56,905 nucleotides of DNA from Promethearchaeota archaeon (GTDB taxonomy: Archaea > Asgardarchaeota > Lokiarchaeia > Sigyniarchaeales > SOKP01), in assembly GCA_019058365.1 (NCBI GenBank), contig JAHPZE010000028.1, positions 1 to 56,905 on the forward strand, written 5' to 3'. Every line of letters begins with the position of its first letter. Within the stretch, counting starts at the first letter, position 1. The notes under the pieces are model-generated. The model made no database searches, was not told where the DNA came from, and was given only the letters and a program-made list of their open reading frames with translations. Made by a program: the position numbers and the translations under genes. Shown here one piece after another: positions 18,926 to 39,871 of this stretch.

Positions 18926-20506
18926 ATGGTTGATAAAGTAACACCTTTTTTAATTAACATGGGTGAAGTAATTCCAGCACGAAGTCAAGCAAGTTTACTT
19001 AACGAATTAGCAATGGGCTTAATTGAATGTGTAGGAATTTACGGTAAGAGTTTGAAAAAATTAGGAAAACTATCAAAAATTTCAACAGCTTTTTGGCCAG
19101 TTCGTTTAATTCCTTTAAGTGATACAAGAGCTTGTGTTTGCAGTTATCTTTTAAATAAACAAGAAAAATTAAGCGTAGGGAAATTTGCTCAGACGCCCCC
19201 AAGACCTGAAAATATTATTAAGGGAGCAGATCCAGCATCATTTTTAAGTTCATTACAAAATTATAATAACACTTATCTAAAAAGAGCAAAAAACTTCAAA
19301 CGGGGTGTTGTTATTCAGGAAGCTTTATTTAGTACAAGTGAAGTCGGATATTTTCAAAATTTTTTCCTTAATCAATATAGTTTAAGTTCTCAGTCAACTC
19401 CTTATTTTCTATTAGAAGGCGCATCTATTACTAAAAGTGTTGATCAAATAAAAATAGTGCCAGATATTACTGAATTTGTATCTCAAAATGATGTTAAAAT
19501 GCTAGATACCTTTGGAGATGCGATTACAAAATTATGTGAGCAATGGATTACAAAAGGTGGTAAAGAAGTTGAGAAAATTAGAGATACAAAAGTTGATACA
19601 GGGGAAGAAGAGAAGCAACTCGCGATACTTAATAAAGAAATACAAGCTGAAAAAGAACGGGAAATAGAAAAAACTCCAGAAGAATTAGTAAAACTCGGAA
19701 AATACAAAATCAATGATAAAACTGGAGAACTAAATAATCATCTTAGCACGCTCAAAAATAGTGTTGATAGTTTGAAAAACGCAATTAATCAACGTGACCT
19801 CTTTTTGGTTGAAGAAAGTTTAAAAGATATCGATGTAAAATATCGAGAGTTAGGAGATTCAATAACCAGAAATAAGAATGAAATTGCTCAATTACGAAAA
19901 AATGTGCAGCGTGAAATCTCCGATCTTGAAAAAACAAAGCAACAAAAACTCCGAGAATTAGAGCGTAAAAAATCTGAAGTTGAAAAACAAATAGAAGCAA
20001 AACATAGTGGTCTTAGTAAAGATTTAACTTCTGCCGAGGATGTAGTAGCACAAATCAAGACAGAAAAACAATCTTGTTTAGATAATATCGAATCAATGAA
20101 AGATAAAGAAATGAGCAATGTCCAAAACTTCTTCAATAATTACACTCTTGAAATAAAAACTCAAAATGTCATAGTAGGCATCCCTATTTATATATTCTTC
20201 TTTATAGATCCTAATACAAATAGAACCACTGAAAGGGCTCCTGTACTCCCAATATTAATTGATGGAGGGAAAATTGTAAGTACTAAAGTTAAAGCAAGCT
20301 TTAGACAAAAGCTCAGGGATTTAATGAATAAAGAAAATTCAATGATCGAGTTAGTTGAAACTCAAGGAGATAAAAACAATCTAATGGAAATGAAAAACTT
20401 AGATACACGCTTAGAAGATGCAATCAATGATTTACGGATAAGGAAAATCTTAAATAAGAAGCAAGCAGACACTGCTAAAAGTATTATTGCAAATCTCGTT
20501 TGGTAG
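18926..20506 (+). CDS. Hypothetical long coiled-coil protein with globular termini
   Basis: Central heptad-rich K/E/Q/L region of about 200 aa; ATG at 18926 preferred. Confidence 0.7.
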   Translation: MVDKVTPFLINMGEVIPARSQASLLNELAMGLIECVGIYGKSLKKLGKLSKISTAFWPVRLIPLSDTRACVCSYLLNKQEKLSVGKFAQTPPRPENIIKGADPASFLSSLQNYNNTYLKRAKNFKRGVVIQEALFSTSEVGYFQNFFLNQYSLSSQSTPYFLLEGASITKSVDQIKIVPDITEFVSQNDVKMLDTFGDAITKLCEQWITKGGKEVEKIRDTKVDTGEEEKQLAILNKEIQAEKEREIEKTPEELVKLGKYKINDKTGELNNHLSTLKNSVDSLKNAINQRDLFLVEESLKDIDVKYRELGDSITRNKNEIAQLRKNVQREISDLEKTKQQKLRELERKKSEVEKQIEAKHSGLSKDLTSAEDVVAQIKTEKQSCLDNIESMKDKEMSNVQNFFNNYTLEIKTQNVIVGIPIYIFFFIDPNTNRTTERAPVLPILIDGGKIVSTKVKASFRQKLRDLMNKENSMIELVETQGDKNNLMEMKNLDTRLEDAINDLRIRKILNKKQADTAKSIIANLVW

Positions 20507-20683: not shown

Positions 20684-23600
20684 TTGAAAAAAACTAAAAA
20701 AATGCTAATTGTGTTAATGATTTTACTAGTAATTAATTTGGTTGGTTTTATACCGAAAAACTTACCTGATAATTCTGAAACCAATTCTAATTTTCAAGAT
20801 GGACCAACTCCTATTCTTAATAGCGGAGATCAAATACTTCTGCATACATATGATTTTGAAGATCAGACTTTAGGCCAAGATCCTACCTATGAAACTTTTA
20901 CTATTGATGAATCTTCTGGTGATGTGTATATTGACGATTTAGGCGATGCACAGCATAAATCTATGGCATTACATAAAATAGGTACAACAGGCAGAGTATG
21001 GGTTAAAGATAATTTTTCACTCGAGGGTGAAACTTATGTCTCTGGTGAATACCATTTAAAAGTATATCATGATAATTCTGGATTTGGTATAAATTTGAAT
21101 TCAGCAAATGGTGAATATATCTTAGCTATGGTATGGTGGAATGGAGAAATAAGAGATAATGTAGGTGGTACTTTTCTTGCTAATTATGCATTGAACCAAT
21201 GGATAGATGTTATTATTTATTTTGACCTTAACGTAGGTTGGATGTTTGATCTTAATGGGGTCAGATACGGCGCTGGGTATAGTTTTCCTTTTTTTGGAGC
21301 TTTTACTGCAAATGCAGAACATATTTGGATGACCTCTTTCGTATCTGGTGGTGGTGATGGCTATTTCCGCGTAGATGATATTTCTGCCTATTATAATATT
21401 ATAAACATTCTTAGCCCTTTAAATCAAACCTATACAAATGCTATGAGTGGGTATTATCCTGCTACGTATGGATTTGAAAATGACTTAGATGGATTTCTTC
21501 CTTCAGAATGGACTGATATTTCTGCAGGAACAGCAACCTCAACAGTTGAGGGTGAAATATTTAACCATAAAAAAGTGCTAAAAGCCTATGATCCTGGCTC
21601 TGGATCATGGACTGATACAAATATTACCTTTTCTCCACAAATAAGTGGAATAATAGAATTCTGGGTCTTAAAAGAGTCGGGGGGCGATGGTTCACCGTGT
21701 GATTTTAATCTTAGAGGCGACAATAAAAGTGCCGGTTACTCTGACGCAGTCCGCTTATTAATTGATGATAGTAATTGGGGTAATACTTTTTATTCAGCGG
21801 GTTACGGATATTTTGCTGTGGATAAATACTCTGATGATCAATGGTTTCATATACGGATAGATTTTAATTGTAGATCTAATAAGTATGATCTCTATTTAGA
21901 TGGATTAAAGGTGATAGATCAAGCTAATTTTTACTATACCGAGAATTATATCGACCATATACGGTTTGCTAGCTCAAACGGTCGAAGTGGTACTTATTAT
22001 ATAGATGCACTTAGTTTTTCATGGGATCCTTATTATAATATAGGAGATAATTTACATGAAGGCTTATTAATCAGTGTTGATACAGAAATACCTCTTGAAT
22101 CGATGAGTTATTCACTAGATAATCAACCAAAAAGAGCTATTTTAGGAAATATTACCATCCAGATGCCCGAAGATGGGCTTCATTCAATCCAAATATTTGG
22201 CGTAGATATATTTGGTACACATTATCAATCGGATATCAGATATTTTACTGTAGATTTTCCAATAGATATAATCACTCCTGAAGCAAAAATCTATACTGGA
22301 CCGATGAATGGGTATTATCCTGCGACATATGGATTCGAAGAAACAATTACAGATACTTTACCATCTTACTGTGATTTTGCTACTGGTGGAACTAGCCCAG
22401 ATGGTCCTGGTTCCTATGCGAGAGTTATTGATAATTGGACCGATGGTGCAGGAAATTTACATAAAAAGGTATTTAAAACATATGATCGGACTAGTAGTAG
22501 TACGGCACATTCTTCACTTTATTTTACAAATGAAGGTTCTGAAATATGTCGAAATTGCACAATTGAATTTTGGGCCTGCAATACGAATACAGGTAACTTC
22601 TACCACACGTATTTTGAAATAATCGGAAATTTAGGAAGTATGGTGCAATTTGAATGGGATTCAGGTGGTACATCAAATGATCCCGAAATAAGAATTACTC
22701 CTGGGACTGGAGAGTTCGGTACGGGTGTATATCATGAATGGAATAGATGGTATCGATATTCTATTGATATTTCTTGTGATGGTGGTTATTTGGGATTAGG
22801 AGCAAATCAATTTCGATTTCGAATTTATGATGAGATTGGTAATCCGATTTACACTTCTGCTGATTTGGATTTACTTACTACACATCCAACAGGTGGTCCA
22901 TACAGATATCATGTGTTATCGACTGAATCTCAATCTGATGTTTCTCACTATCTTGACGGTTTTGGAATCACTAGTTTGCAAGATAATTATGAAATCGGAG
23001 TTAATCTTAATGAAGGTTTATTACTCAGTTTTGAAAATAATACGAATTTTGATTGGACAGGATATACTATAGACGGGTGTATTAATAAGACAATTTTAGG
23101 GAATACTACAATTCCCTTGCCTAAGGATGGTCCACATTCAATAAAGATATATAGTAATGACTCAATAGGAACAACATATCAATCCAATATATGTCATTTT
23201 TCGGTTCATCACATCAATATTCGAACTCCTGAAGATATTATCTATACTACTCCAATGAGTGGATATTATCCTGCCACCTACGGGTTTGAAGATGAGATTA
23301 CAGGTACTTTAGGGTCTAATATAAAATTTGTGGATTGGGATAATCATGAAACATCTACAATCTTAGATGAATTAGACGGTCATAAGAAAGTTTATCAAAT
23401 ATATACTGCTGGAGGTTGGGACACTATAAGAAATTATTGGGATACAGCTCTTTTCAATGTCACTTATGAAATGTGGATGAGAGTGGATGATGCTAATGAA
23501 AAACATCGATTTTCTCTCAGTGAACTTGATACCGGAAATGATGATGGTAATGCAATAGTTCATCTAATGGTGGAAAATAATAGTTTCTATTTGGTTGATG

Positions 23601-26600
23601 ACGCTACAGCTAATGTAAGGGTTATTACTTCTTTTGCTTCAGATACATGGTACCATTTAAGAGTTGATGTTTTTTCTGATAATACTTTAGATTTATATCT
23701 TAATGACGTAAAGTTGCTTTCTAAGAATCAAACTTCAAATGACTTAACCACAGGAATAAATGGAACATTTTTTAAAGAATATGATGGGGCATCTAAATGG
23801 TTAATAGATGCTGTGGGGTATTCTGGGGATCCAAATTATAATATTGGAGATAATTTGAATGAGGGTTTACTCTTAAGTTATGTAAATTTTACATCTCTTG
23901 ATTGGCAAGGATATTCTTTAGATGGACAATCCACTAAAACAATTTTAGGAAATACTACAATTCCTATGCTTAGTGATGGAAGTCATTATATTCAAGTTTT
24001 CGGGAATGATACCTTAGGTGAACCATATTGGTCTAACACAAGACATTTTACGATAGATACAGGTTCTTTTTTTAATATAAGGACTCCAGAAAACAGAACT
24101 TATTATGCACCAATGAAGGGATATTACCCTGCAACTTTTAGTTTTGATAATGATAAAGAGGGAAATGATCCCACTGGATTGATTGTAGATGAAACTGGCG
24201 GAACTGCCAATATTTTAAATGAGTTAGACGGTCATAAGGGAGTATTGGAACTACATGATGTGAATGCAGATCTGGTTAACATTACACATGATTTTAACTT
24301 AATAGAATATGGAACTGTAGAGTGTTGGATACGATCTGATGATGTAACACAACGTACGTTTATAGAATTAAGATATGGGTCTTCATTAGGCATTTATTTG
24401 ATCATAAGAGATGATGATTGGATGTATTGGGGATCTTCGGGTATAGTATCGCTACAAAAAGCTAGTGGTGGTAATATGGATACACCGTTAGACAATATCT
24501 GGTATCATATTAGAATTGATTTTGAATGTGGTGATGGTAATTATACAGAATTAAGGGAAGATCATTGGAGAGTATATATTGATGGAATAAAGAGTGCTGA
24601 ACTAGATTTCTTTAATGGTAATCATCTTAATGGAATTAATAGCATAGTTCTTCGAACTCATCTCGGTCTTAGTAATTATTATTCCTACTTTGATGCGCTT
24701 GGATACTCATGGGATCCTTATTATAACATTGGAGATAACATATATGAAGGTTTATATCTTAGTTTTACACAAAACTCTGAATTAAACTGGATTGACTATT
24801 CATTAAATGGACTAAGTAACAGAACGATTTTTGGAAATATAACTATTCCCTTTTCGAATTTAAATGAAGGAATTAATAATATTCAATTATTTGGTGAGGA
24901 TTTTAGAGGAATTTTATATGAATCTGAAATTAGATACTTCTCAGTTGGTTATGGGATAAATATTATAACCCCCGAAGATAAGATTTACACAGAACCTATG
25001 AGTGGATATTATCCTGCGACATATGGCTTTGAAAGCGATCTTCCGGGAGCAGACGCAAAAGATTGGACACACGCAATAGTAGGAAGTACTCACTCATATG
25101 TTGTCGATTCATACAAAGGACATAAGAGAGTATATGAGTTATATGATAATGCCGGAGGAAATCCTGATACTTATACAAATTATAATGATCAACTTTCTGG
25201 AACAGTAGAGGCATGGGTTCTTGTAACTCTTTCGGATTATGTTATTTATATTGATATTAACCAAGGTGGAAGTCCTGTAATAAGGCTAATCCTTAAAGCT
25301 GGAGCATATCTTATAGCCTTGAATAATTCAGTACAAGCTAATATGACAGAATATGGGATTATAAAGGAGGATCAATGGTATCATATTAGGGTCGATTTTC
25401 GTTCAGCTTTGGCAGGAGCTTATATGGGATTAGCAGGTGATTCTTACAGGATTTATTTAAATGATACACAGTCTAATTCAGATTTACTAGTAAATATTCC
25501 ATCAGCTCAAGTAAATAGATTGGGATTTACAACAGGATGGTCATTAGCTGATCCAAATTATTATGCATATTTCGATGCTGTAGGGTATTCTTGGGACCCA
25601 GACTATAACATTGGAGATAATTTAAATGAAGGATTATTACTCAGTTTTGAGAATTCTACAGCTCTTTATTGGCAAGGGTATACTTTAGATTTTCAACCTA
25701 TTAAGACAATTTTAGGAAATACTACTATACCAATGCCTCTGGATGGTGAACATATAATTCATGTATTAGGTAACGATTCATTAGGAGAGTTCTATCAATC
25801 CAAATTGCGTCATTTTGAAGTTTGTAGTATAAATATAATCACTCCTGAAAACAAGACATATATTGAACCGATGAGTGGTTATTATCCTGCTACTTATGGT
25901 TTTGAGAGTGATAAAGATGGGGCGCTTCCAAGAGATTTTATTAATCTAAGTATGTCTGGATGTAATCTAAAAGTTATTTCTGAGTTGGATGGACATAAAA
26001 AAATCTTAGATTTAGATGATCCCGTTGCTGATGGTCACGTGTCTATGAGGAATAACCTAACAATACCCCAAGCATATGGTGCAATGGAATTTTGGGTTAG
26101 AAGTACTAATATTAACAAACCTTTTCAACTTGAATTTCAAGATAGCTCCTTAAATGTTTTAGCAGGTCTTCAACTTATGGATTCGACTTGGAAAGGGTTA
26201 AATCCGTCATGGACAATAATACCGGGATTAGGGACTCCATTGGTCAATAATTGGCATCATATAAGAATAGATTTTGAATGTACAGTTGGAAATTATACAG
26301 GTTTATCTCAATATACATTAAGATATACGGTAGACAATACATTATCAGCAATTTTACCATTTTTAACTAATTGTTCACAACTAGATACAATTCTATATTG
26401 GACAAGCACATCTAATGATAATTATCATATCTATTTAGATGCGTTGAGCTATTCATGGGATCCTTATTATAAAATTGGAGCTAATTTATATGAGGGATTA
26501 TTGCTTAGCTATGAAAATCAAACAGTTTTAGATTGGCAAGGATATTCTCTGGATGGTCAATCTATCAAAAATATTTTAGGAAATACAACACTAATTATGC

Positions 26601-28498
26601 CCGAGAACGGATTACATAATATTCAAGTTTTAGGCAATGATTCATTAGGTTTTATGCGATATTCTCAGTTTAGATATTTTACAGTACAATATTTCCCAAT
26701 CGAGATAATCACTCCTCAAAATAAGACCTATACTGAACCGATGAGTGGTTATTATCCTGCTACTTATGGTTTTGAAAATGATGAGAACAACAATTTTCCA
26801 AAAGGATGGACCAACAACTCTGGGCAATATGGTTATGCTAAAGTTATTGATGGAATTGGTGGACATAATAAGGTTTTGGAATGTTACAGTGGTACAGAAG
26901 ATGGTTCTCGGATTGCTTCGAGTAACTTCTTTGATCCGCAAGAGTATGGCTCATTTGAATTTTGGTGGTATAAATCTTCAAATTATACATCAGCAGCAAT
27001 TATAGATATTTGGGGAGAAACTCCGGATGTTTGCATATCGATTAGAGCAGATCACTGGCCAAGTGCTAATAATGATAAAATTGAATATCAAAGTGCTTCT
27101 GGTTATCAAGATACGGGATATCCTTATTATGCTGATAATAAGTGGATGCATTTTCGTATAGATTTTAATTGCTCATCGGATACCTATAGTCTTTGGATAG
27201 ATCAAGTACAGTATCTTGATAATATTGATTTCGTTAATTCAAAGAACGAAACTGGTGTTAATCAAATACGATTTGATAGTTACAATGCTGGAAACGCAGT
27301 TTTATATTATGTTGATGCTTTAGGATTTTCATGGGACCCAAACTATAACGTTGGAGATAATCTTTATGAAGGTTTATTAATTAGTTTTGAAAGTAGTATT
27401 GATCTCAATTGGCAAGGATATTCTTTAGACTTTCAACCTATTAAAACAATTCTAGGAAATACCACCATTCCAATGCCATCTGAAGGATTACATACTATTC
27501 AAGTGATTGGGAATGATTCATCAAGTACTATGCGATATTCACAACTTCGATATTTTACATATGTATCTGATATCTTTCCTCCTACTATAACAATCAATTC
27601 GCCACTTTTGAATGCACTTTTCGGCAATGCTGCACCGTTTTTTAATTTGACTATCTTAGATCCAGATGTAAATACAATATGGTATACCTTTGATGGGGGT
27701 TTAATAAATCTCACAATTACTTGGAATTTTGGATATCTCGATCAAACTGAATGGGATAAAATTGGAAATGGTACTGCAACCATCAGGTTTTATGCAAATG
27801 ATACAATTGGGAATACAGGGTTCGAAGAGATAACAATTAGAAAGGACATAATATCCCCAGATATTACAATTGTTTCCCCGAGTTTTAATGATCTCTTTGG
27901 AAGTACTGCACCATCATTTAGTTTTAACATTATTGAACCAAATTTAGATAGTAGATGGTATACATTAGACGGTGGAGTAACAATTATTCCAATTTCAGGA
28001 CCTACAGGATCTATAGAACAAGCAGAATGGTATAAGTTTGGCAATGGGACTGTTACTATTAGATTCTATGCAAATGATTCGGTTGGAAATTCTGGATGGG
28101 AAGAGGTAACAGTTAGAAAGGATATACTCCCTCCCTTTATAACGATTACTAACCCGATAGAGGATCGAGTATTTACAGAGAGAGCGCCAAATTTTGATTT
28201 AACTATAAACGAAGGAAATTTGGATCAGATATGGTATACTTTAGATAATGGATTAATAAATAGAACTTGTGCACTTTCTGGACAAATTATTCAAGAGTAT
28301 TGGAATGCATTGCCACCTGGAGAATACACTCTAAGATTTTATGCTACTGATACATTGGGCCATGAAAGCTTTGCGGAAGTAATGATTAGGAAAATAGAAT
28401 CCCCTGCTATATATAGTTATAATATAATTATACTTTCTCTAGTAATGATATTCAGTTTAATATCAATTTCATGGGAAATTAAGAAAAGAATAAAGTAA
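20684..28498 (+). CDS. Giant secreted, C-terminally anchored surface glycoprotein with 7 Ig-like/LamG-like tandem units and 3 Ig-like domains
   Basis: N-terminal KK plus hydrophobic signal; seven M(S/N/K)GYYPAT(Y/F) units; C-terminal TM plus KKRIK; many NxT/S sequons; GGGTGA SD before TTG. Confidence 0.85.
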   Translation: MKKTKKMLIVLMILLVINLVGFIPKNLPDNSETNSNFQDGPTPILNSGDQILLHTYDFEDQTLGQDPTYETFTIDESSGDVYIDDLGDAQHKSMALHKIGTTGRVWVKDNFSLEGETYVSGEYHLKVYHDNSGFGINLNSANGEYILAMVWWNGEIRDNVGGTFLANYALNQWIDVIIYFDLNVGWMFDLNGVRYGAGYSFPFFGAFTANAEHIWMTSFVSGGGDGYFRVDDISAYYNIINILSPLNQTYTNAMSGYYPATYGFENDLDGFLPSEWTDISAGTATSTVEGEIFNHKKVLKAYDPGSGSWTDTNITFSPQISGIIEFWVLKESGGDGSPCDFNLRGDNKSAGYSDAVRLLIDDSNWGNTFYSAGYGYFAVDKYSDDQWFHIRIDFNCRSNKYDLYLDGLKVIDQANFYYTENYIDHIRFASSNGRSGTYYIDALSFSWDPYYNIGDNLHEGLLISVDTEIPLESMSYSLDNQPKRAILGNITIQMPEDGLHSIQIFGVDIFGTHYQSDIRYFTVDFPIDIITPEAKIYTGPMNGYYPATYGFEETITDTLPSYCDFATGGTSPDGPGSYARVIDNWTDGAGNLHKKVFKTYDRTSSSTAHSSLYFTNEGSEICRNCTIEFWACNTNTGNFYHTYFEIIGNLGSMVQFEWDSGGTSNDPEIRITPGTGEFGTGVYHEWNRWYRYSIDISCDGGYLGLGANQFRFRIYDEIGNPIYTSADLDLLTTHPTGGPYRYHVLSTESQSDVSHYLDGFGITSLQDNYEIGVNLNEGLLLSFENNTNFDWTGYTIDGCINKTILGNTTIPLPKDGPHSIKIYSNDSIGTTYQSNICHFSVHHINIRTPEDIIYTTPMSGYYPATYGFEDEITGTLGSNIKFVDWDNHETSTILDELDGHKKVYQIYTAGGWDTIRNYWDTALFNVTYEMWMRVDDANEKHRFSLSELDTGNDDGNAIVHLMVENNSFYLVDDATANVRVITSFASDTWYHLRVDVFSDNTLDLYLNDVKLLSKNQTSNDLTTGINGTFFKEYDGASKWLIDAVGYSGDPNYNIGDNLNEGLLLSYVNFTSLDWQGYSLDGQSTKTILGNTTIPMLSDGSHYIQVFGNDTLGEPYWSNTRHFTIDTGSFFNIRTPENRTYYAPMKGYYPATFSFDNDKEGNDPTGLIVDETGGTANILNELDGHKGVLELHDVNADLVNITHDFNLIEYGTVECWIRSDDVTQRTFIELRYGSSLGIYLIIRDDDWMYWGSSGIVSLQKASGGNMDTPLDNIWYHIRIDFECGDGNYTELREDHWRVYIDGIKSAELDFFNGNHLNGINSIVLRTHLGLSNYYSYFDALGYSWDPYYNIGDNIYEGLYLSFTQNSELNWIDYSLNGLSNRTIFGNITIPFSNLNEGINNIQLFGEDFRGILYESEIRYFSVGYGINIITPEDKIYTEPMSGYYPATYGFESDLPGADAKDWTHAIVGSTHSYVVDSYKGHKRVYELYDNAGGNPDTYTNYNDQLSGTVEAWVLVTLSDYVIYIDINQGGSPVIRLILKAGAYLIALNNSVQANMTEYGIIKEDQWYHIRVDFRSALAGAYMGLAGDSYRIYLNDTQSNSDLLVNIPSAQVNRLGFTTGWSLADPNYYAYFDAVGYSWDPDYNIGDNLNEGLLLSFENSTALYWQGYTLDFQPIKTILGNTTIPMPLDGEHIIHVLGNDSLGEFYQSKLRHFEVCSINIITPENKTYIEPMSGYYPATYGFESDKDGALPRDFINLSMSGCNLKVISELDGHKKILDLDDPVADGHVSMRNNLTIPQAYGAMEFWVRSTNINKPFQLEFQDSSLNVLAGLQLMDSTWKGLNPSWTIIPGLGTPLVNNWHHIRIDFECTVGNYTGLSQYTLRYTVDNTLSAILPFLTNCSQLDTILYWTSTSNDNYHIYLDALSYSWDPYYKIGANLYEGLLLSYENQTVLDWQGYSLDGQSIKNILGNTTLIMPENGLHNIQVLGNDSLGFMRYSQFRYFTVQYFPIEIITPQNKTYTEPMSGYYPATYGFENDENNNFPKGWTNNSGQYGYAKVIDGIGGHNKVLECYSGTEDGSRIASSNFFDPQEYGSFEFWWYKSSNYTSAAIIDIWGETPDVCISIRADHWPSANNDKIEYQSASGYQDTGYPYYADNKWMHFRIDFNCSSDTYSLWIDQVQYLDNIDFVNSKNETGVNQIRFDSYNAGNAVLYYVDALGFSWDPNYNVGDNLYEGLLISFESSIDLNWQGYSLDFQPIKTILGNTTIPMPSEGLHTIQVIGNDSSSTMRYSQLRYFTYVSDIFPPTITINSPLLNALFGNAAPFFNLTILDPDVNTIWYTFDGGLINLTITWNFGYLDQTEWDKIGNGTATIRFYANDTIGNTGFEEITIRKDIISPDITIVSPSFNDLFGSTAPSFSFNIIEPNLDSRWYTLDGGVTIIPISGPTGSIEQAEWYKFGNGTVTIRFYANDSVGNSGWEEVTVRKDILPPFITITNPIEDRVFTERAPNFDLTINEGNLDQIWYTLDNGLINRTCALSGQIIQEYWNALPPGEYTLRFYATDTLGHESFAEVMIRKIESPAIYSYNIIILSLVMIFSLISISWEIKKRIK
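21401..27565 (+). repeat. Seven tandem ~860-950 bp intragenic repeat units
   Basis: The MxGYYPAT motif starts at 21443, 22304, 23255, 24113, 24998, 25871 and 26741; a 42-nt exact duplicate lies at 25864-25905 and 26734-26775. Confidence 0.9.
27569..28395 (+). repeat. Three tandem ~92-aa Ig-like repeats
   Basis: DI.PP.ITI..P...F...AP.F...I...WYT.D.G...W...RFYA.D..G repeated three times. Confidence 0.85.
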
Positions 28499-28577
28499 AT
28501 TCTATTATTAAAAAAATTTAAGGATAAATATTAAAAGATCAATTAAATAAAAATAAATAATTGAATGGTGGATTTTA

Positions 28578-31079
28578 ATGACAGAAATTAGAATACAAAA
28601 ATTAACTTTTATAAGATTAATTTATGGAATTATAATTATAATTATTTTAATCTCAGCATTTCTTCCATATTATTCTGAATTTCACCCTCCATATCCACCA
28701 CCTCCCCAAACAGCTATATATGACGGCTATTTTACATATTATATGGGGTATTTGGCGTTAATTTTTGGAGGGTGGGTAGGATTTGCACTTGGTATTATCT
28801 CAATTATTCTAATGAGTCCAGAGAGAAAAAGAAAAGCACTCTTATTCGGTGGGACAGGTTTTCTTTTAATACTAATTAGCTTAATGATCTACCCCTCTAT
28901 AATATCATCAAATCAGGTTTCGCCAAATCCGATATCATTTGCATCTGGTTTCTATTTATGTTTGATATTTGGGATTAGTTCAGTTGGAACGAATATATTT
29001 GCTTTTGTAAGTAAGGAAGGAGAATTAAGATTCCAACGAGTTAAATCTGGAAAAATAAAAGAAGCAAAGGTGAAACCAGTGAAAGAAAAACAAACAAAAG
29101 TTAAACCAACGAAACGTAAAACATTAGAGATTGAACCCATTGAGATCATGCAAGAAGCAGTAATTGGAACTGATTGGGAAAAAAAAGAATTCATTGCAGA
29201 CAAAACAATGGAATATATCAAAACGATGCAATTTAAAACAAAAGAATTGCCTTTTTTCGAAATTATTTCAAAAATGGGCATAAAAAGAGAAGCTCTTGAA
29301 ACAATTGTAGATGATATGATTTCCAACAATGAAATTGAAGCTCGCGTTAGAGATTTTGTAATCATTTTCAAAGAAATTTCAAAAGAGAAGAGGGAAGAGG
29401 GATTAAAAAAAATCAAAAACAGTCTTCAGCAAAAAATGACAGAAATCGATGAGTTAATCAACGGAAATAGATTTGATGAAGCGATAGCAAATCTAAAGCA
29501 TGTAATAGACTCCGCAGAGAGTTTTCAATTAAAAGATTTTGTAAATAAAGCTAATGAAAAGATAAAACAGTGTAATACACTTAAAATAGAAAAAAGAGAG
29601 GAATTAGAAGAAGAGAGAGTTAAGGATGAGCTTCGAACCCAGCTATCAGAAATTGAAGATTTAATTGAAGATAACAGGTTTAAAATAGCACATAGAAATT
29701 TAGATAAAGTTAAAGAAATTGCCCAAGAATACAATTTATCAGAGTTTTTGAATGAAGTTGAAGAACTAAAAAATCAGTGTAATGCACTAGAGTCAGAAAT
29801 TAGAAGAGATGCGGAAGAATCAAAAGCTAAGAGTGAGATTCAACAAAAAATGCAAACAGTTACCAAGCTAATTGATCAGAAAAAGTTTGAGATAGCAATT
29901 AGTAATTTAGAACAAGTCATTGAGGATGCTAAAACATTTGAATTAAAAGAATTTGTGAAAGAGGCAGAAGAAAAGATAAAAATATGCAAAGAGCTTGAAA
30001 TTGAATGGAGGAGAGACCAAAAACAGAGGGCAAAGGATGATCTTAAAACAAAAATGTCTGAAATCAGTATTTTAATCAAAGAGAGTAAAATCAAAAATGC
30101 ACTTAAACAATTAGATTCAGTTAAAGAAATCGCCCAAGAATACGAATTCTCAGCGTTTTTAAAAGAAGCGGATGAAAAAGTAAAGGAATGTCAAGTACTT
30201 GAACAGGAAATTAGAAAAGACAAGGATCAAGTTAAAATTGAAAAGAAATTAAATAAAAAATTGTATAAAATTGAAAATTTAGTTGAATCCAATCAATTTT
30301 ATGATGCAATTTTAAATTTGGTGGACATTAAGGAAGTAGCAAGACAATATGAACTTTCTGATTTATTAGAGAAAATTGAAGAAAAAATAGAATATTGCAA
30401 AAATTTTCAGTTTAATACCAAGAATAAAATTAAGAATACAATTTTGAATTATAGATCAAAATTAGCAAGACTGGATATATCCGATATATCCGAAAAAAGC
30501 GAGATTCAAGATGAAAATCTAATTGAAAAAGTAATTCTTGAAATGATTAATAATCGAGAAATTAATGCCGAATATTTTTCAAGTTCAAAATCAATTGCCT
30601 TTTATCAAAAGGGAAAAGAAGCAGTCCCTGTCGCGAAAGTTGAAGAACTAAATAAACAGAGAGTCTTTCTAAGTTATTCTACTTTGGATGCTGAGCTTTT
30701 TCAAATTTCAGATATTGTTAAAGAATTAGAAGTGTATCCTGAAATTAGGAAAGTATCGTATTGGCAAGCAGATAGTAAACAAAATATTGTAGAATTCATG
30801 GAAGATACCCTTAAAAATACTGATATTTTCGTACTTTTCTGCTCTAAAAACTCGGTAAAATCCAACGCAGTTAAAGACGAGTGGCAAGCCGCCTTCCAAA
30901 TGAGAAAAAAAGGAATGGTAAAGATTATTCCTGTATATGAAGATGAAGACGATATTCCTGTCTTATTATGGCAGATGTTAAACGTTAAATATACAAAAGA
31001 GGATTTTAGCAGCTTTATACAAAAATTATATGAAGAAATCCTAAGAGGTTTGGAAAAGCAAGTTTCTCCTAAAGCATAA
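28578..31079 (+). CDS. Membrane-anchored TIR-domain protein (4 TM, winged-helix/PCI-like, 5 helical repeats, winged-helix/PCI-like, TIR)
   Basis: TIR motifs RVFLSYS, DIFVLFCSKNSVKSNAVKDEWQAA, KIIPVY; N-terminal TM helices; five ~69-aa repeats. Confidence 0.82.
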   Translation: MTEIRIQKLTFIRLIYGIIIIIILISAFLPYYSEFHPPYPPPPQTAIYDGYFTYYMGYLALIFGGWVGFALGIISIILMSPERKRKALLFGGTGFLLILISLMIYPSIISSNQVSPNPISFASGFYLCLIFGISSVGTNIFAFVSKEGELRFQRVKSGKIKEAKVKPVKEKQTKVKPTKRKTLEIEPIEIMQEAVIGTDWEKKEFIADKTMEYIKTMQFKTKELPFFEIISKMGIKREALETIVDDMISNNEIEARVRDFVIIFKEISKEKREEGLKKIKNSLQQKMTEIDELINGNRFDEAIANLKHVIDSAESFQLKDFVNKANEKIKQCNTLKIEKREELEEERVKDELRTQLSEIEDLIEDNRFKIAHRNLDKVKEIAQEYNLSEFLNEVEELKNQCNALESEIRRDAEESKAKSEIQQKMQTVTKLIDQKKFEIAISNLEQVIEDAKTFELKEFVKEAEEKIKICKELEIEWRRDQKQRAKDDLKTKMSEISILIKESKIKNALKQLDSVKEIAQEYEFSAFLKEADEKVKECQVLEQEIRKDKDQVKIEKKLNKKLYKIENLVESNQFYDAILNLVDIKEVARQYELSDLLEKIEEKIEYCKNFQFNTKNKIKNTILNYRSKLARLDISDISEKSEIQDENLIEKVILEMINNREINAEYFSSSKSIAFYQKGKEAVPVAKVEELNKQRVFLSYSTLDAELFQISDIVKELEVYPEIRKVSYWQADSKQNIVEFMEDTLKNTDIFVLFCSKNSVKSNAVKDEWQAAFQMRKKGMVKIIPVYEDEDDIPVLLWQMLNVKYTKEDFSSFIQKLYEEILRGLEKQVSPKA
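29424..30410 (+). repeat. Five ~69-aa helical repeats in the TIR protein
   Basis: Consensus L..K...I..LI....F..A...L..V...A..Y.L..F......K...C; units 1/3 and 2/4 pair more closely. Confidence 0.75.
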
Positions 31080-31129
31080 TATTAAATTTCTTTCTTGTTT
31101 TATTTTTCTGTCCTTAAACTGAATAATTC

Positions 31130-31306
31130 TTATTCATAATATTCCATTGATTGCCCACAGCATTCTGGAATAGGTTGATAAGCACACTCATCGGAGCAAC
31201 AGCATAATAAGTAATCATCCTTAACCATCATTGATTTATTACAACATATTGGGACTTCTTTCCTCGCTCCACATACATTACAAACTAATTCTGGTATTTT
31301 AATCAT
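31130..31306 (-). CDS. Small Cys-rich protein (58 aa) with two desulforedoxin-like motifs; not in the ORF track
   Basis: Manual translation MIKIPELVCNVCGARKEVPICCNKSMMVKDDYLLCCCSDECAYQPIPECCGQSMEYYE*; 10 Cys; GGAG upstream. Confidence 0.75.
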   Translation of the reverse strand: MIKIPELVCNVCGARKEVPICCNKSMMVKDDYLLCCCSDECAYQPIPECCGQSMEYYE

Positions 31307-31611
31307 CTCCTATAGTTTAAAATTTCATTTTTAATAAGAAAAACAAGAAACAAAAACGCTTCTCTAATATATTATAACAATAACTAAATTATCAGTTTCT
31401 CAAATTAAGAAAATATTTAAATTTATTTTCAAATTAGTAATTTCAAATTTGGTTCAGAATATATTCAGCCAACAAATTATTTTTTCTCTTAAATTACATC
31501 TTTGGGAAAGTTTTAAATAATAATTTCTTCTCTTAATTTATAACAATAATGTTAAGTGAAGAAATTCAAGTAAAATAAAATCAAATAAAAATTTGGAGTG
31601 ATAATGATATT

Positions 31612-34182
31612 ATGGAATTAGAAAAACGCGAAATTTTTGAGGAACAAATTAACGAATATAAAAAATTACGACCTCTTTATAAAGAATTTCATAAATACAT
31701 GAAAAAAGTCCTTAAAAATGTCGTGAGAGGCTATTCATCTGAATTTATCATACAAGGAAGAGTAAAGAAAATCTCTAGCTTTGCAAATAAATTATTTAAA
31801 TCAGAAACAAATATTACTATTCCTTTTTTAGAAATTAATGATATATGTGGATTTCGGATAATTTTACCCAATATTAATGAACTAAATACAGTTAGTGAAG
31901 CAATTCGAGATAATTTTTTATTTGATACAGTAAACGGTCATGAAATGTCCGAATTAAATGAAATTAGTGCTTCTTTAGGACATTTCCAAACCTATGTTGT
32001 TCAATTGATGCCTGAATTAAAGCTATATGAAAGACTTGAATTAAAAATACCAGACGAAATTTTTAATTTAAAAGCAGAAATTCAAATATGTACATACTTG
32101 AGTTATGGATGGGCTGCAAATCATTATAAAGTCTTTAATCAATATGAATTTAAAGTACCTAAGCCGTATGACCAAGAACTCAATCGAGTAAAATCTTTAT
32201 TGACTATTGAAGATGAATCATTGAATAAAATTATGAAGAAAATGCGAGATTATAAATCTACAATAATTACGTATATGTCAAATGATAAAATCAAATCTGA
32301 AATTGAAAGATTAGAAATGGTATATAAAGCAGACAAAGAAAACTTTAAGAATGGTTATAGAATAGCAAAATTAGCAATGGCAATTAACGATATGGATAAG
32401 AGTATTGAAATATTGAACGAATTAATGAAAACTGAATCCTTTAAACAAGCATCAGAATTAGAAGTAGCAGAGATTTTAACAGATCTTGGGATATCTCATC
32501 ATAAAAAATATAAAAAAAACCCTATGAGTAATGAATTCTTACGAGGGCAGAATTATTTAAAAGAAGCAGCTCAAAGAAATCCTTTTGATTCTAATGGATG
32601 GTCATCATTAGGAGGCACTTATAAAAGTCAAAAAAATTATCCCAAAGCTTTAGAATGTTATAAGCAAGCATTGAAAGTGAAACCCGGAGATCCCTATCCA
32701 TTAGGTAATTATTTAATCTTAATAATTCAACAAACGGGAGATTTAATCCATATTGAAAGAAATTATGATATGATCCAAAAAGCCATAAAAAAACGAATAA
32801 GACAAATAGAAGTAATGGTTGATGCTCCATGGGCTTTTTTTGATGTAGGTTTATTTAATTTATTTCTTGGAAATATTAATGAAGCTTTAGATTATTATTT
32901 AAAAGGAATAAGATATAGTTCCGATATTTGGATGATTGAAACTACTCTAGATACATTAAATAATCTTAAAATAATAGAAGATAAAATAAAAAGTATTAGT
33001 TTGGTGAGACAAGTTCTACGATTGGGGATGATTTTTCATCCAAATGTAATCGAAAAAACAGATAAAATGATTAATGAATCTACGTTGGTATTAGATTCTG
33101 AAATGAAACAAATGGAAACAAAATTTGATGAATCTATTGTAATTATTGCTGGTGGGACAGATAAGCGTATAGAAAGAAATTTGGAAGTATTTAATAATAA
33201 TTTAATTGATGCTTTCAATAATTTTAAAGGTATCATAATTTCAGGTGGTACTACATCAGGAATTAGCAATACTGCAGGAGATATTCAAGAAAAATATCCT
33301 AATAATATAAGAACTATTGGTTACTTACCAAGTCATATGCCAGCTCATGTTGAACTAGATAAAAGGTATTCTTCAATTCATTTTACAGAAGGAAAAGATT
33401 TCAGTATTAGAGAACCTATTCAATATTGGTATGATATTATGAAATCTGGTATAGTCCCAAATAAGGTAAAACTTATTGGAATTAATGGTGGAAACATAGC
33501 TTCATTTGAGTTTCATTTAGCTATCGTTTTTGGGGCACAAGTAGGTATAATGAGAAATAGTGGAAGAGCTGCAACTGAATTGATTAATGATCCAAGTTGG
33601 GAAGATCCCTCTGGACCGGAATATGGCTATAGACCTAAAAAATTGTTTAAAGTGCTTAAGAATTCTCCTGAAGATATCTATAATTTTTTAACAAAACCAT
33701 TCATTGTGGATCCAGATATTGAAAATATCCAGAAATTATTGGTTCAGCATCGAGAAAGTGGTGCTAATCAATATGAGTTAAATTTTACCACTGAAGATGT
33801 TGATAACACCATTTTTTCTGGTTTTCTCACTGCATTGGATCATATTGCAAGTCATGCATTAAAAGTAGGAGAAATATTATCAATAAAATTTAGCCTTGGG
33901 CATCTATCGGGTGGATTTTTTACAAATAGAGAATTTAAAGTGGTGTTTTTACTGAATGAGATTCCATCACCGACTTTAGAAGATAAAATTATTAAATTCA
34001 TTAAGGATGTTGAAGATAAATTTAGTGATACGTTCCATAAACTTCATTTGAGCTGTCAAAGCTATTTGGGTGGAAAAGAGATGAATGATATCTTATCAAA
34101 TGTTTTCGGTTCTGAGATATTAAAACTTATCGGAGACACAACTGGAACTAAACCCTTAGAAATGCCAGAAGAATGTGACTAA
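31612..34182 (+). CDS. RelA/SpoT-like nucleotidyltransferase, TPR, SLOG and longin-like multidomain protein
   Basis: GRVKKISS, DICGFRII, AEIQICT (RelA_SpoT-like); WSSLGGTY..ALECYKQAL (TPR); IIAGG, SGGTTSG, GGNIASFE, SGRAA (SLOG); FSGFLTAL (longin-like). Confidence 0.75.
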   Translation: MELEKREIFEEQINEYKKLRPLYKEFHKYMKKVLKNVVRGYSSEFIIQGRVKKISSFANKLFKSETNITIPFLEINDICGFRIILPNINELNTVSEAIRDNFLFDTVNGHEMSELNEISASLGHFQTYVVQLMPELKLYERLELKIPDEIFNLKAEIQICTYLSYGWAANHYKVFNQYEFKVPKPYDQELNRVKSLLTIEDESLNKIMKKMRDYKSTIITYMSNDKIKSEIERLEMVYKADKENFKNGYRIAKLAMAINDMDKSIEILNELMKTESFKQASELEVAEILTDLGISHHKKYKKNPMSNEFLRGQNYLKEAAQRNPFDSNGWSSLGGTYKSQKNYPKALECYKQALKVKPGDPYPLGNYLILIIQQTGDLIHIERNYDMIQKAIKKRIRQIEVMVDAPWAFFDVGLFNLFLGNINEALDYYLKGIRYSSDIWMIETTLDTLNNLKIIEDKIKSISLVRQVLRLGMIFHPNVIEKTDKMINESTLVLDSEMKQMETKFDESIVIIAGGTDKRIERNLEVFNNNLIDAFNNFKGIIISGGTTSGISNTAGDIQEKYPNNIRTIGYLPSHMPAHVELDKRYSSIHFTEGKDFSIREPIQYWYDIMKSGIVPNKVKLIGINGGNIASFEFHLAIVFGAQVGIMRNSGRAATELINDPSWEDPSGPEYGYRPKKLFKVLKNSPEDIYNFLTKPFIVDPDIENIQKLLVQHRESGANQYELNFTTEDVDNTIFSGFLTALDHIASHALKVGEILSIKFSLGHLSGGFFTNREFKVVFLLNEIPSPTLEDKIIKFIKDVEDKFSDTFHKLHLSCQSYLGGKEMNDILSNVFGSEILKLIGDTTGTKPLEMPEECD

Positions 34183-34357: not shown

Positions 34358-35626
34358 ATGGTGGAGAAAAAATTGGTTAATACACTAAATCTTAATAATT
34401 CATTCAAATTATATGATGAAGCATTAAATTTAATTCCCGGTGCAATTTTAGGGATACGACGTCCATATAACTTTATTGAAGGGGAGTACCCTATATTCTT
34501 TGAATCTGCAAAAGGTGGAAAAGTAATTGATGTGGATGGGAACGAGTATATTGATATGTTATGCGCTTATGGCCCAATAATCATAGGTCACAGGGAAGAA
34601 GAAATCGATAATGCTGTTATTGAACAAATACGCAATAAAGGATTCTGTATGTCTTTAACTCAACAAGTTCAAAATAAATTGGCAAAAAAATTACGAGAAT
34701 TGATACCATGTTGCGAGAAATTAGTATTAATGAAGATGGGAACTGATGCAACAACAGCAGCAATAAGGGTAGCAAGAGCCTATACGAAAAAAGTTAAGAT
34801 CCTTAGCTGCGGTTATCATGGTTGGTATGATGCCTTCAGTGAAGTCCATGGAATTGAAGCAGGCATACCTAAGAAATTATATGAAGACTTTTTTGAATTT
34901 AAGTTTAATAATCTAGAAGAAGTTGAAAATATATTTAAAAAACATACGAATGAAATTGCGGCTATTATTATAAATCCAATCCATACACCAGGTGGTCGAG
35001 AAGTTGAGATGCCTAAACCAGGATTCTTGAAAGGTATACGTGAATTAGCAACTGAAAATAATGCTTTATTAATATATGATGAGATTAGAACTGGTTTTCG
35101 AGTAGACATGGGAGGAGCACAAAAAATGTTTGGAGTTATTCCTGATCTTGCTGCATTTGGTAAAGCCATGGGAAATGGATACCCTATAAGCACTCTTGTA
35201 GGAAAAGCAGAATTCATGGATGTATTAGTAGAGAAAGTATTTTTAAGTTCAACCTTTTTCCCTAATAGTCTCGCTCAAATAGCATCTCTTAAGACAATTG
35301 AAATACTTGAACGTGAAAAAATATTAAGCAATATTCGTCAAAAGGGAATTCAATTTGCAAGTCAAGTTAAAGAGAGTATTGAAGACAGTGGTGTTCCTTG
35401 CATCTATTCGGGAGAGCCTTGGATGCCATATATTACTTTTATTCCGGATAAAGATTTACTCTATAGAAAACTAAGAGAAGAATTCTATAGACAACTCATT
35501 AGACGGAAAGTATTCCTTCAACCTTTCCATCATGGTTATATATGCTCACGACATTCAGAAGAAGATATGAATTATGCAGCAAATATGATTGATGATTCTT
35601 TGAAGGAAATTAAGAAATTGTTATGA
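34358..35626 (+). CDS. kat: Class III PLP aminotransferase, HemL-like; probable 3-aminobutyryl-CoA aminotransferase
   Basis: DVDGNEYID, YGPIIIGH, DEIRTGFR, FGKAMGNG; directly upstream of kce in a lysine cluster lacking kal. Confidence 0.72.
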   Translation: MVEKKLVNTLNLNNSFKLYDEALNLIPGAILGIRRPYNFIEGEYPIFFESAKGGKVIDVDGNEYIDMLCAYGPIIIGHREEEIDNAVIEQIRNKGFCMSLTQQVQNKLAKKLRELIPCCEKLVLMKMGTDATTAAIRVARAYTKKVKILSCGYHGWYDAFSEVHGIEAGIPKKLYEDFFEFKFNNLEEVENIFKKHTNEIAAIIINPIHTPGGREVEMPKPGFLKGIRELATENNALLIYDEIRTGFRVDMGGAQKMFGVIPDLAAFGKAMGNGYPISTLVGKAEFMDVLVEKVFLSSTFFPNSLAQIASLKTIEILEREKILSNIRQKGIQFASQVKESIEDSGVPCIYSGEPWMPYITFIPDKDLLYRKLREEFYRQLIRRKVFLQPFHHGYICSRHSEEDMNYAANMIDDSLKEIKKLL

Positions 35627-35652
35627 ATAATTAAAATTAGAGTGAAAAATTT

Positions 35653-36480
35653 ATGGAAAAATTGATTATAACTGCCGCTATAAGTGGAGCAGAGGTCACA
35701 AAGGAAAATAACCCCAATATTCCATATACTGCAGAAGAAATAGGAAAGGAAGCTGAATTTGCTTATAAGGTTGGAGCTAGTATCATCCATTTACATGTTA
35801 GGGAAGATGATGGAACTCCTACTCAAAAAAAGGAAAGATTTAGAGAATGTATTGAAGAAATTAGAAGAAGAGTTCCTGATGTAATCATTTTACCTTCCAC
35901 TGGTGGTGCTGTAGGGATGACAAACGAGGAAAGACTTCAACCTATTTATTTAGAGCCTTCTCCTGAAATGGCTACATTAGATTGCGGAACAATGAATTGG
36001 ATTGGCGGAGATGAAATCTTTCTCAACACTGAGAATACAATAATCTATTTTGTCCAAGAGATGAATAATCGGGGAATTAAATATGAATTAGAATGTTTTG
36101 ATAAAGGAATGATTGATACCGTTTTAAGATTGCATAATAAAGGATATATTAAAGGTCCTATGCACTTTAATTTCATGTTAGGTGTAAAAGGAGGAATTAA
36201 TGCTTCAGTAAGAGATTTTTTATTCTTAGTTAATAGTATTCCTAAAAATTCTACATTTAGTATTGGAGCTATTGGTAGGTATGAATTTCCGATGATTACG
36301 TTATCTATAATAATGGGAGGGCATGTTCGAGTTGGTTTTGAAGATAATCTTTATTTATCTAAAGGGATATTAGCAAATTCTAATGGGGAACTGGTAGAAA
36401 AAGTTGTTAGAATAGCACATGAACTAGGGAGAGAAATTGCAAAACCCGATGAAGCACGCAAAATCCTAAGTTTAATATAA
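35653..36480 (+). CDS. kce: 3-keto-5-aminohexanoate cleavage enzyme
   Basis: KLIITAAISGAE, HLHVRE, STGG, RVGFEDN; lysine cluster context. Confidence 0.92.
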   Translation: MEKLIITAAISGAEVTKENNPNIPYTAEEIGKEAEFAYKVGASIIHLHVREDDGTPTQKKERFRECIEEIRRRVPDVIILPSTGGAVGMTNEERLQPIYLEPSPEMATLDCGTMNWIGGDEIFLNTENTIIYFVQEMNNRGIKYELECFDKGMIDTVLRLHNKGYIKGPMHFNFMLGVKGGINASVRDFLFLVNSIPKNSTFSIGAIGRYEFPMITLSIIMGGHVRVGFEDNLYLSKGILANSNGELVEKVVRIAHELGREIAKPDEARKILSLI

Positions 36481-36512
36481 TATAATTTATTTGAGTTTTG
36501 TAGGATGAAAAT

Positions 36513-37220
36513 ATGTATAAGGAATTAGCAAAATACTATGATTTAATCTATTCGTGGAAAGATTATAAGGGAGAAGTCAGTAAAATTAAGGAATTGATTA
36601 AGAAATATAAAAAATCTGATGGTAATAAATTATTAGATGTTGGTTGTGGAACAGGAAAACATTTGGAATATCTTAAAGATGAATATTCTTGTATTGGTAC
36701 GGATATTAATGCAAAAATGTTGGATATTGCAAAAGAAAAGGTTAGCGATGTAATTTTCGCCCTATCAGACATGATAACTTTAAAGCTCAAAGATAAATTC
36801 GACATAATTTTATGTTTGTTTAGTTCAATTGGGTATGTAAAAACATATCCAAATTTAAAAAAGACAATAATTAACTTTGCCAATCATTTAGAAAAAGGAG
36901 GAATAATAATTATCGAACCATGGTTTACAAAAGATGCCTATTGGGTAGGACACCCCGGTATGACCACTTACGATGGTGAAGATATTAAGATTGCGAGATT
37001 AAATACAGCAAAATTAAAAGATGGTCTTTCAGTTATGGAAATGCATCATTTAATTGTTGAAAGAAATGAAGATGTTAAGTATTTTGTTGATCATCACGAA
37101 TTAGGACTCTTTGAAATTGAAAAGTTTTTAGAGATTATGATTGAAGCTGGATTAAAAGCAGAATTTTTGAAAGATGGCTTAATGAAAGATAGAGGTCTCT
37201 ATATAGGAACAAAATCATAA
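36513..37220 (+). CDS. Class I SAM-dependent methyltransferase (TylM1/DesVI-like)
   Basis: YDLIYSWKDY, LDVGCGTGKH, CLFSSIGY, IIEPWF, RGLYIG. Confidence 0.88.
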   Translation: MYKELAKYYDLIYSWKDYKGEVSKIKELIKKYKKSDGNKLLDVGCGTGKHLEYLKDEYSCIGTDINAKMLDIAKEKVSDVIFALSDMITLKLKDKFDIILCLFSSIGYVKTYPNLKKTIINFANHLEKGGIIIIEPWFTKDAYWVGHPGMTTYDGEDIKIARLNTAKLKDGLSVMEMHHLIVERNEDVKYFVDHHELGLFEIEKFLEIMIEAGLKAEFLKDGLMKDRGLYIGTKS

Positions 37221-37242
37221 AAATTTTTACACATTTATAAAT

Positions 37243-39802: not shown

Positions 39803-39871
39803 TTCTAAAGTTTAAATAAGTTAGTTTTATTTCTGTAATTATCAAAAACACTAATTGTTTTTGTCAAGAAA

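Follow-up and report, generated by a model that had tools for sequence, protein, structure and literature searches.

Animal Toll-like receptors combine surface ectodomains with non-enzymatic TIR domains. Thoeris systems, to our knowledge, all use cytosolic TIR sensors. In type I Thoeris, a SLOG domain reads the product of the TIR protein, as set out in a survey of 29 Thoeris types (10.64898/2025.12.03.692087), and the MHR1/2 region of TRPM2 binds ADP-ribose (ADPR) (PMC13143021). Here we describe a locus of a Promethearchaeota (Lokiarchaeia) archaeon, carried on contig JAHPZE010000028.1 of assembly GCA_019058365.1 (the window, i.e., the whole stretch of DNA that was analysed, comprises 56,905 nucleotides). 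In this locus, a membrane TIR protein (gene B) and a protein with nucleotidyltransferase (NTase), TPR, SLOG and longin domains (gene D) are encoded together with a giant surface protein (gene A) and a small Cys-rich protein (gene C). D-type genes are linked to TIR genes well beyond this locus, and we consider it somewhat probable, judging from sequences and predicted structures, that an outside-in, Thoeris-like TIR-to-SLOG messenger system driven by surface receptors is encoded here.

All four genes were judged to be real, at the positions listed in Table 1. The original prediction, made from this DNA without database searches, had described a lectin/Ig-like surface protein, a transmembrane (TM) TIR protein and an NTase-TPR-SLOG-longin-like protein of a Lokiarchaeal host; the domain calls were upheld by Pfam and by predicted structures, and the host assignment stood as well. 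The three large genes are indeed co-oriented, and the Cys-rich gene, which lies on the opposite strand within the 532-nt gap between B and D, is also real and conserved. Since C intervenes on the other strand, a single A-B-D transcript is unlikely, and an operon of this kind was rejected. A promoter and terminator scan performed at chance level, its sigma-70 model being unsuited to archaea, and Rfam gave no match. Overall, the interpretation put forward originally is partly supported.

Linkage of D-type SLOG genes to TIR genes

Homologs of D were gathered from genomes and metagenomes and clustered at 60% identity, and loci with at least 4 kb of flank on both sides were kept. Of 21 divergent clusters, 10 had a TIR gene no more than 5 kb away from D, compared with 1.5% of the long open reading frames (ORFs) of the archaeon's own genome; with the background taken from one genome and six loci hand-picked, this ratio is a guide and not a test. 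The TIR-linked clusters include bacterial, Bathyarchaeial and Thermoplasmatal loci, and spot-checked TIR calls were confirmed by Pfam. The partner TIRs belong to at least four distant lineages and are 15-35% alike, and the link is therefore not one inherited accident. The 'LONG' profile also matches RyR-type tails, and longin status was thus not based on it.

Within the genus, the site lies between U_cc, a conserved coiled-coil protein gene, and a lysine-fermentation cluster. U_cc, which has no family match, is present in 44 of the 54 genomes of the genus (66-92% identity), with TIR receptor genes inserted on either flank. The site is empty of both TIR and D in 27 relatives; the TIR block and D thus come and go together, flanking C in the present genome. 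C was called in 24 of these 27 empty sites, and we therefore conclude that it is chromosomal backbone. Its inclusion in the signalling locus, as originally proposed, was not upheld, and C was rejected as a component of the system. In a tree of the U_cc marker, genomes with D plus TIR appear in four separate lineages among empty ones. In two genomes (G061 and G064), D is reduced to fragments at the site, and B-type TIRs are absent. The gene orders observed are TIR-C-D, TIR-D-C, TIR-U_cc-D and TIR-D-U_cc-TIR, with the TIR staying beside D throughout; in G025, an array of five TIR genes directly precedes D. In G084, the genome's only B-type TIR is located 424 nt from D, tail to tail, at another site. 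In G074, D directly follows U_cc with no TIR upstream, and the downstream side is cut off. Across the 161 genomes of the class, all 15 with a longin-type D carry B-type TIRs.

It is very improbable that the TIR-D adjacency reflects chance or hitch-hiking at an insertion hotspot. Most filled sites do occupy one chromosomal position, perhaps going back to one ancestor, and many TIR genes can be found per genome (up to 8 of B type), yet D is found beside TIR genes again in other phyla and at sites with no relation to this one, the TIRs concerned are of unrelated lineages, and loss has removed the two parts jointly. Pure chance linkage is thus largely refuted. The concern, voiced in the original prediction, that adjacency could be coincidental has been answered by the 10/21 versus 1.5% comparison together with the co-occurrence and joint loss of the two genes, and synteny across relatives, in which the genes proved to be linked, supports the TIR-SLOG association.

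Several arrangements related to this linkage were seen in passing. In G014, G062, G123 and G112 (L035:6758-16259, L232, L273, L274), one to three TPR-TIR genes stand immediately before a gene for a short D of 669 residues, which lacks the longin and, in G014, has near-intact motifs; this gives the family a second form of the pairing, a cytosolic one. On contig C38 of G063 (L223, L224), a dense cluster that may serve in immunity is formed by two tandem D-like genes and, behind them, a DUF4062-ATPase-TPR gene and six TIR genes, of which the one scanned encodes TIR-LRR. Stand-alone SLOG-longin genes lacking NTase and TPR were found in G081 and G080, ca. 2.2 kb from a 76-residue TIR fragment (L271:9668-10711, L272:4153-5034). 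At two TIR-less D loci (L063:8284-8946, L065:8108-8770), a gene for a metallo-beta-lactamase-fold protein with a weak Apyc1 match lies two genes upstream.

A family of membrane TIR receptors

Gene B encodes an 833-residue protein with four TM helices, helical repeats, a weak PCI match and a C-terminal TIR, which matched TIR_2 of Pfam with 56.6 bits (cut-off 28); the match to ThsB_TIR, at 20.4 bits, was below the cut-off of 21.2. The catalytic-type Glu noticed originally is present as E768 in a KDEW motif, its equivalent was retained in 47 of the 48 non-redundant TIRs of B type, and strong purifying selection acts on the domain (Table 1). A profile of the TIR compared with the Protein Data Bank (PDB) matched solely prokaryotic TIR/SEFIR chains and no Toll-like receptor (TLR) TIR, the closest solved structure being Cat1 (9m0n). 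The dS of the TIR (30654-31052, + strand) to close relatives is 0.62-0.88, against 0.18-0.30 for the N-terminal parts of B and 0.04-0.12 for D (G027), suggesting recombination among TIR paralogs. In the archaeon's own genome (4.74 Mb), TIR_2 was matched at six loci and LSDAT in a single gene; an in-frame TAG is present at one of the TIR_2 loci (G000 C39:139264-139545, - strand).

B-type TIRs occur in 32 of the 161 genomes of the class, all within one family, with up to 8 per genome. Twenty-three complete members, three of them paralogs in the same genome as B (contigs C7, C33 and C54) and 20 in relatives, share one topology, assigned by hydropathy: the N-terminus is hydrophobic, a large ectodomain follows, and a single internal TM connects it to the TIR at the C-terminus. 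The ectodomains of the receptors scanned include beta-helix and Ig types. B itself departs from this single-TM layout, having four TMs and no ectodomain. A fused single-chain receptor is 49% identical to B over the last repeat, the PCI-like segment and the TIR, and another fused receptor is 49% identical to A over the Ig stalk; the parts divided between A and B are thus one chain in relatives. The Toll-like layout of the split circuit proposed originally is in this respect supported, the relatives' proteins being single ectodomain-TM-TIR fusions. Among other split or tandem forms, a 3619-residue Ig-rich single-pass TIR receptor stands in tandem with a 639-residue beta-helix receptor in G118 (L261:6572-19564), a genome in which no D-type SLOG was found. 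In G139 (L275:7685-12282), a gene for a 1325-residue Ig-TM protein overlaps a gene for a 207-residue TIR protein by 4 nt, which points either to another type of split receptor or to a frameshift.

The product of gene A, 2604 residues long, begins with a hydrophobic stretch and contains seven repeat units of ca. 290 residues, a repetition visible even at the DNA level. Pfam matched a sialidase-like carbohydrate-binding module (CBM; 45.5 bits, cut-off 27) and a Big_13 Ig domain. A single C-terminal TM, at residue 2581, leaves a tail of ca. 5 residues, and no sorting-signal model for this anchor was found in NCBIfam. The lectin/CBM-like cassettes of A are 21-33% alike among themselves and mostly 25-37% alike when compared with the cassettes of G008, although the TIR of G008 is 92% identical to that of B. 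Such variability outside and constancy inside is a pattern that would be expected for recognition proteins.

The four-TM form of the TIR protein is rare, being found in 7 of the 161 genomes, and constitutes a single clade. In all six genomes with upstream sequence, the four-TM TIR gene is preceded by a gene for a surface protein that lacks a TIR and shares the type of last Ig and anchor seen in A, and the pairing persists when the distal ectodomain is a peptide-binding SBP (G025) or when the genes reside at another locus (G013). We therefore regard it as probable that A and B are coupled as a split receptor, with A as the ectodomain, though the 4-TM form being one clade, the pairing may reflect one inherited block. 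It is possible, with somewhat less than an even chance, that A is instead a co-duplicated surface protein of a receptor array that does not work with B, which would sense the state of the membrane or another membrane protein through its own four helices. Fourteen other proteins of the genome carry the same Ig repeat and 13 of these lack a TIR, and in G065 a comparable anchored protein is encoded ahead of a receptor that is itself complete and fused; the six-of-six pairing, preserved with an SBP ectodomain and at a second locus, speaks against it. This alternative bears on the A-B step alone and is compatible with the messenger reading. A complex prediction for the last Ig and TM of A with the four-TM domain of B scored 0.15 (mark 0.32) and was weighed neither way, and the ESM Atlas offered no reliable family for the four-TM domain (best 0.89).

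The SLOG protein and the proposed pathway

The 856-residue product of D matched RelA_SpoT (39.3 bits) and TPRs in Pfam, and its LSDAT_prok score of 24.5-27.6 bits was just under the 25.4 cut-off in one search and over it in another. The AF2 model had a pLDDT of 84.5. Foldseek with the whole protein returned TPR proteins alone, and domain-level searches were required. The NTase model then matched RelQ and RelP (Z 15.8 and 15.7), and the SLOG model matched SLOG proteins with Z 16.0-18.3, including the TRPM2 N-terminus, the best matches including LOG-family proteins. The SLOG loops are conserved across the D family and align with the TRPM N-terminus. The tail, folded alone, matched the longins sedlin (Z 12.1, rmsd 2.8 Å, 126 aligned), synbindin (Z 11.2), VAMP7 (Z 10.2) and a Lokiarchaeal longin (Z 8.6); sequence searches with it in PDB and Pfam yielded nothing useful, with no Pfam match over cut-off. 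The longin has the lowest dN/dS among the domains of D (0.05, close relatives). One relative (Promethearchaeia) has a D that is 97% identical, and some relatives carry RyR in the place of the longin.

We take RxK, DxxGxR, GYxSxH, EIQxRT and WAxxEH to be the motifs that serve synthesis in RelA/SpoT enzymes. In D, RxK, DxxGxR and EIQ are kept, and the third, fourth and fifth motifs read GHFQTY, EIQICT and WAANHY. GYxSxH and EH are lost across the longin branch, and the Arg of EIQxRT is changed to Cys in the present copy; the wider family outside the longin branch keeps intact motifs (GYxSxH, EIQxRT, EH...HD). The dN/dS of the D NTase to close relatives is ca. 0.1. Since the motifs are altered and purifying selection nevertheless persists, the domain is, to judge by its sequence, a pseudoenzyme or an enzyme of changed substrate. 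An intact ppGpp synthetase was rejected on the basis of the altered motifs, and ppGpp output appears doubtful. Of the output originally proposed, through NTase or longin, both folds were thus confirmed, and the NTase route lost ground with GYxSxH, EH and, here, the Arg of EIQxRT.

The messenger reading builds on domains, hydropathy topology, residue conservation, linkage, co-loss and fused forms, from which we infer every biochemical step. Receptors with interchangeable ectodomains would recognise a ligand outside the cell, most probably a glycan or a surface protein belonging to a virus or neighbouring cell; in most members, ectodomain, TM and TIR form one chain, and here ectodomain A and TIR carrier B are separate genes. 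Binding would cluster the receptors, and their cytosolic TIRs would assemble and cleave NAD+ to an ADP-ribose-derived messenger. The messenger would be bound by the TRPM-type SLOG of single-copy D, whose gene is linked to TIR genes and which would serve several TIR receptors scattered over the genome. In the last and weakest step, D may act through its longin tail with small GTPases or roadblock proteins, through its TPRs, or through an NTase of changed specificity, and not as a standard ppGpp synthetase. The fullest version of this scheme, in which diversified ectodomain-TM-TIR receptors, fused or split into A and B, respond to contact with a virus or neighbouring cell by producing an ADPR-type messenger that the TRPM-type SLOG protein relays via the longin to small-GTPase or membrane machinery, would amount to enzymatic, Toll-like outside-in signalling in a prokaryote with a eukaryote-type module; we put it forward tentatively and think it rather doubtful as a whole.

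Several observations weigh against the messenger reading. Of the 32 genomes that carry B-type TIRs, 17 have no longin-type D; searched with a SLOG profile that matched three positive controls, 12 of these 17 (89-100% complete) gave no D-type SLOG. In G013, an A+B pair is present at another locus, the U_cc site is empty, and no D was found (92% complete). Kin share loci, and genome counts are thus not independent. About half of the D clusters have no TIR within 5 kb, including P0032 with its full 10-kb flanks. No defence island surrounds D, the flanks consisting of metabolic genes (PADLOC, Pfam), and D contains no known toxic effector domain, neither SIR2 nor Macro (Pfam), and an NTase with altered motifs. 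Finally, the conserved Glu is kept in >70% of all TIRs, including those of the non-enzymatic TLR1/2/6/10 (PMC7075850), and, taken alone, is weak evidence for NADase activity for this reason. We conclude that D seems to depend on TIRs, whereas these can do without it; as a reader, D is neither sole nor obligatory, and the circuit as originally drawn does not hold in this part, given the 12 genomes without a D-type SLOG.

Persistence of the TIR receptors in the 17 genomes without D, together with the finding that D never occurs without them in the class, would also suit receptors that are self-sufficient NAD-cleaving effectors or use another reader, with D clearing, buffering or resetting the TIR product through a SLOG that works as a LOG-like hydrolase. 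The LOG-family proteins among the best fold matches, the lack of an evident toxic output in D and the existence of SLOGs that are N-glycosidases (PMC9503650) point the same way. We nevertheless consider this unlikely, since by sequence the SLOG is of the LSDAT/TRPM type, a sensor type, and relatives outside the longin branch fuse an intact synthetase to SLOG, which fits a reader-effector layout. Less likely still, the TIRs would be non-enzymatic scaffolds, as in animal TLRs, that recruit D through its TPRs, with nucleotide binding by SLOG being secondary. The TLR-like topology, the presence of TPRs and an altered NTase in D, and the fact that the Glu is no proof of catalysis (PMC7075850) are in line with scaffolding. 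However, partner TIRs that are 15-35% alike suit a shared small molecule over a shared protein interface, and the closest solved TIRs are prokaryotic (Cat1, 9m0n) and not those of TLRs.

Under the messenger reading, a role in defence or cell-cell antagonism has about an even chance, partner or substrate sensing is somewhat less probable, and any other role is improbable. Ectodomain variability and patchy presence suit a conflict role; the metabolic flanks, the missing defence island and the SBP ectodomain suit partner or substrate sensing.

Outside the system, gene C also matches a segment of a 1069-residue protein (contig C7, 79346-82555) at 40% identity, and in the ESM Atlas it falls among unnamed Promethearchaeota clusters, the nearest named ones being desulfoferrodoxin N-terminal or rubredoxin-like (weak). 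The lysine-fermentation cluster (34358-43324, + strand) encodes an aminotransferase, a beta-keto acid cleavage enzyme, lysine 2,3-aminomutase and the alpha and beta subunits of D-lysine 5,6-aminomutase; two genes in it (37243-38295 and 39872-40903) have no Pfam match at E 1e-5. Further on, ca. 1 kb (44949-45996) with a GC content of 0.24-0.26 contains no ORF of 80 residues or more and has no Rfam match.

Table 1. Features of the locus and its borders (window coordinates; aa, amino acid residues).
Feature	Position	Strand	Remarks
U_cc, left backbone marker: conserved 526-aa coiled-coil protein	18926..20506	+	outside the system
Gene A: giant anchored surface protein	20684..28498	+	signal-peptide-like N-terminus, 7 repeat units, 3 Ig-like domains and a TM at the C-terminus; lacks a cytosolic domain; may serve as a detached ectodomain
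Ig-like stalk of A, aa 2295-2575	27566..28408	+	41-49% identical to the stalk joined to TM-TIR in relatives' receptors
C-terminal TM anchor of A	28424..28480	+	same type of last Ig plus anchor upstream of 4-TM TIR genes
Gene B: 4-TM protein with helical repeats, PCI/winged-helix-like segment and C-terminal TIR	28578..31079	+	candidate signal writer
TIR domain of B	30663..31052	+	conserved Glu E768 at 30879-30881; dN/dS 0.03-0.08
Gene C: 58-aa Cys-rich protein	31130..31306	-	backbone gene, outside the system
Gene D: NTase-TPR-SLOG-longin protein, single copy	31612..34182	+	candidate signal reader
RelA/SpoT (RelQ/RelP)-fold NTase of D	31648..32253	+	RxK, DxxGxR, EIQ kept; GYxSxH, RT, EH altered; purifying selection
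TPR region of D	32260..33036	+	
LSDAT/TRPM-type SLOG of D	33130..33699	+	conserved glycine-rich loops
Longin-fold C-terminal domain of D	33721..34131	+	archaeal branch; RyR or nothing here in other relatives
Right backbone marker: class III aminotransferase heading the lysine-fermentation cluster	34358..35626	+	outside the system

Comparison with known systems

No description of this system was found in the literature searched, though the NTase-TPR-SLOG architecture may be drawn in Burroughs 2015 or Burroughs and Aravind 2020; the same search gave nothing relevant on Asgard or Lokiarchaeal TIR receptors, and a 2026 paper on the Asgard defensome mentions neither SLOG nor receptors. PADLOC reported no system for the locus; its sole match in D was a 95-residue PDC-S33 hit in the N-terminus, and A and B had none. 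Asgard archaea are the closest prokaryotic relatives of eukaryotes. If the chemistry holds, the locus would represent a prokaryotic receptor-to-messenger pathway for sensing the outside, relevant to the recognition of viruses or partner cells by Asgard archaea, and its SLOG would provide a soluble model for the ligands of ancestral TRPM-type SLOG domains.

Type I Thoeris (ThsB TIR plus ThsA SIR2-SLOG) and type III Thoeris (several TIRs plus a SLOG effector) resemble the present locus in placing one or more TIRs with a conserved Glu beside a SLOG partner, with several TIRs to one partner (10.64898/2025.12.03.692087). As in Thoeris, TIR genes here show conserved linkage to a separate partner with a nucleotide-sensing domain, though this is not obligatory from the TIR side. 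The present TIRs differ in being membrane proteins with large variable ectodomains and not small cytosolic sensors, and D differs in joining an LSDAT-type SLOG to NTase, TPR and longin, with no SIR2. There was no PADLOC match to Thoeris, no known Thoeris effector (SIR2, Macro-TM or others) was detected in D, and the accessible text and supplements of the survey name no RelA/SpoT effector (10.64898/2025.12.03.692087). The BcTir/Tpr system likewise pairs a TIR gene with a TPR-bearing partner in anti-phage defence; there, the NADase is the glycosidase domain of the partner, and the paper includes no RyR, archaea or surface receptor (10.1101/2023.05.26.542521).

At the level of its domains, D is related to three groups of proteins. 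Its SLOG resembles TRPM2 MHR1/2, also an LSDAT SLOG, in fold (Z 16.0, rmsd 2.8 Å, 189 aligned) and glycine-rich loops, at 14-17% identity and without a channel domain. Its NTase shares the fold and the RxK, DxxGxR and EIQ motifs of the small alarmone synthetases RelQ and RelP, unlike which it is fused to TPR-SLOG-longin and has lost GYxSxH and EH (longin branch) and, in this copy, the Arg. The first 663 residues align at 28-44% with an uncharacterised prokaryotic RelA/SpoT-TPR-SLOG(-RyR) family (Chloroflexota, Planctomycetota, Bathyarchaeia, Thermoplasmatota and others), many members of which are encoded beside TIR genes. That family has intact synthetase motifs, ends in RyR or nothing, and has TIR-TPR or TIR-LRR partners, while the longin branch pairs mostly with surface receptors.

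The ectodomain, single TM and cytosolic TIR of the receptors recall Toll-like and IL-1 receptors (PMC7075850), and the distribution of ectodomain and TM-TIR over two proteins, proposed here for A and B, is found in Hydra HyLRR-2 and HyTRR-1 (PMC13207855). Unlike in Toll-like receptors, no LRR was seen in the membrane receptors scanned, for which Pfam gives CBM, Ig, beta-helix and SBP, and no death-domain adaptor was seen. Homology to TLRs beyond layout found no support, the TIR profile having matched prokaryotic TIRs and no TLR TIR in PDB, and the restriction of B-type TIRs to 32 of 161 genomes, all of one family, means that the family is no proof of TLR descent. The layout is best read as reached independently. 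Within an Asgard lineage, the locus family joins the Thoeris and Toll-like layouts: the ectodomains are exchangeable, the TIR is strongly conserved, and the partner carries a TRPM-type SLOG and a longin.

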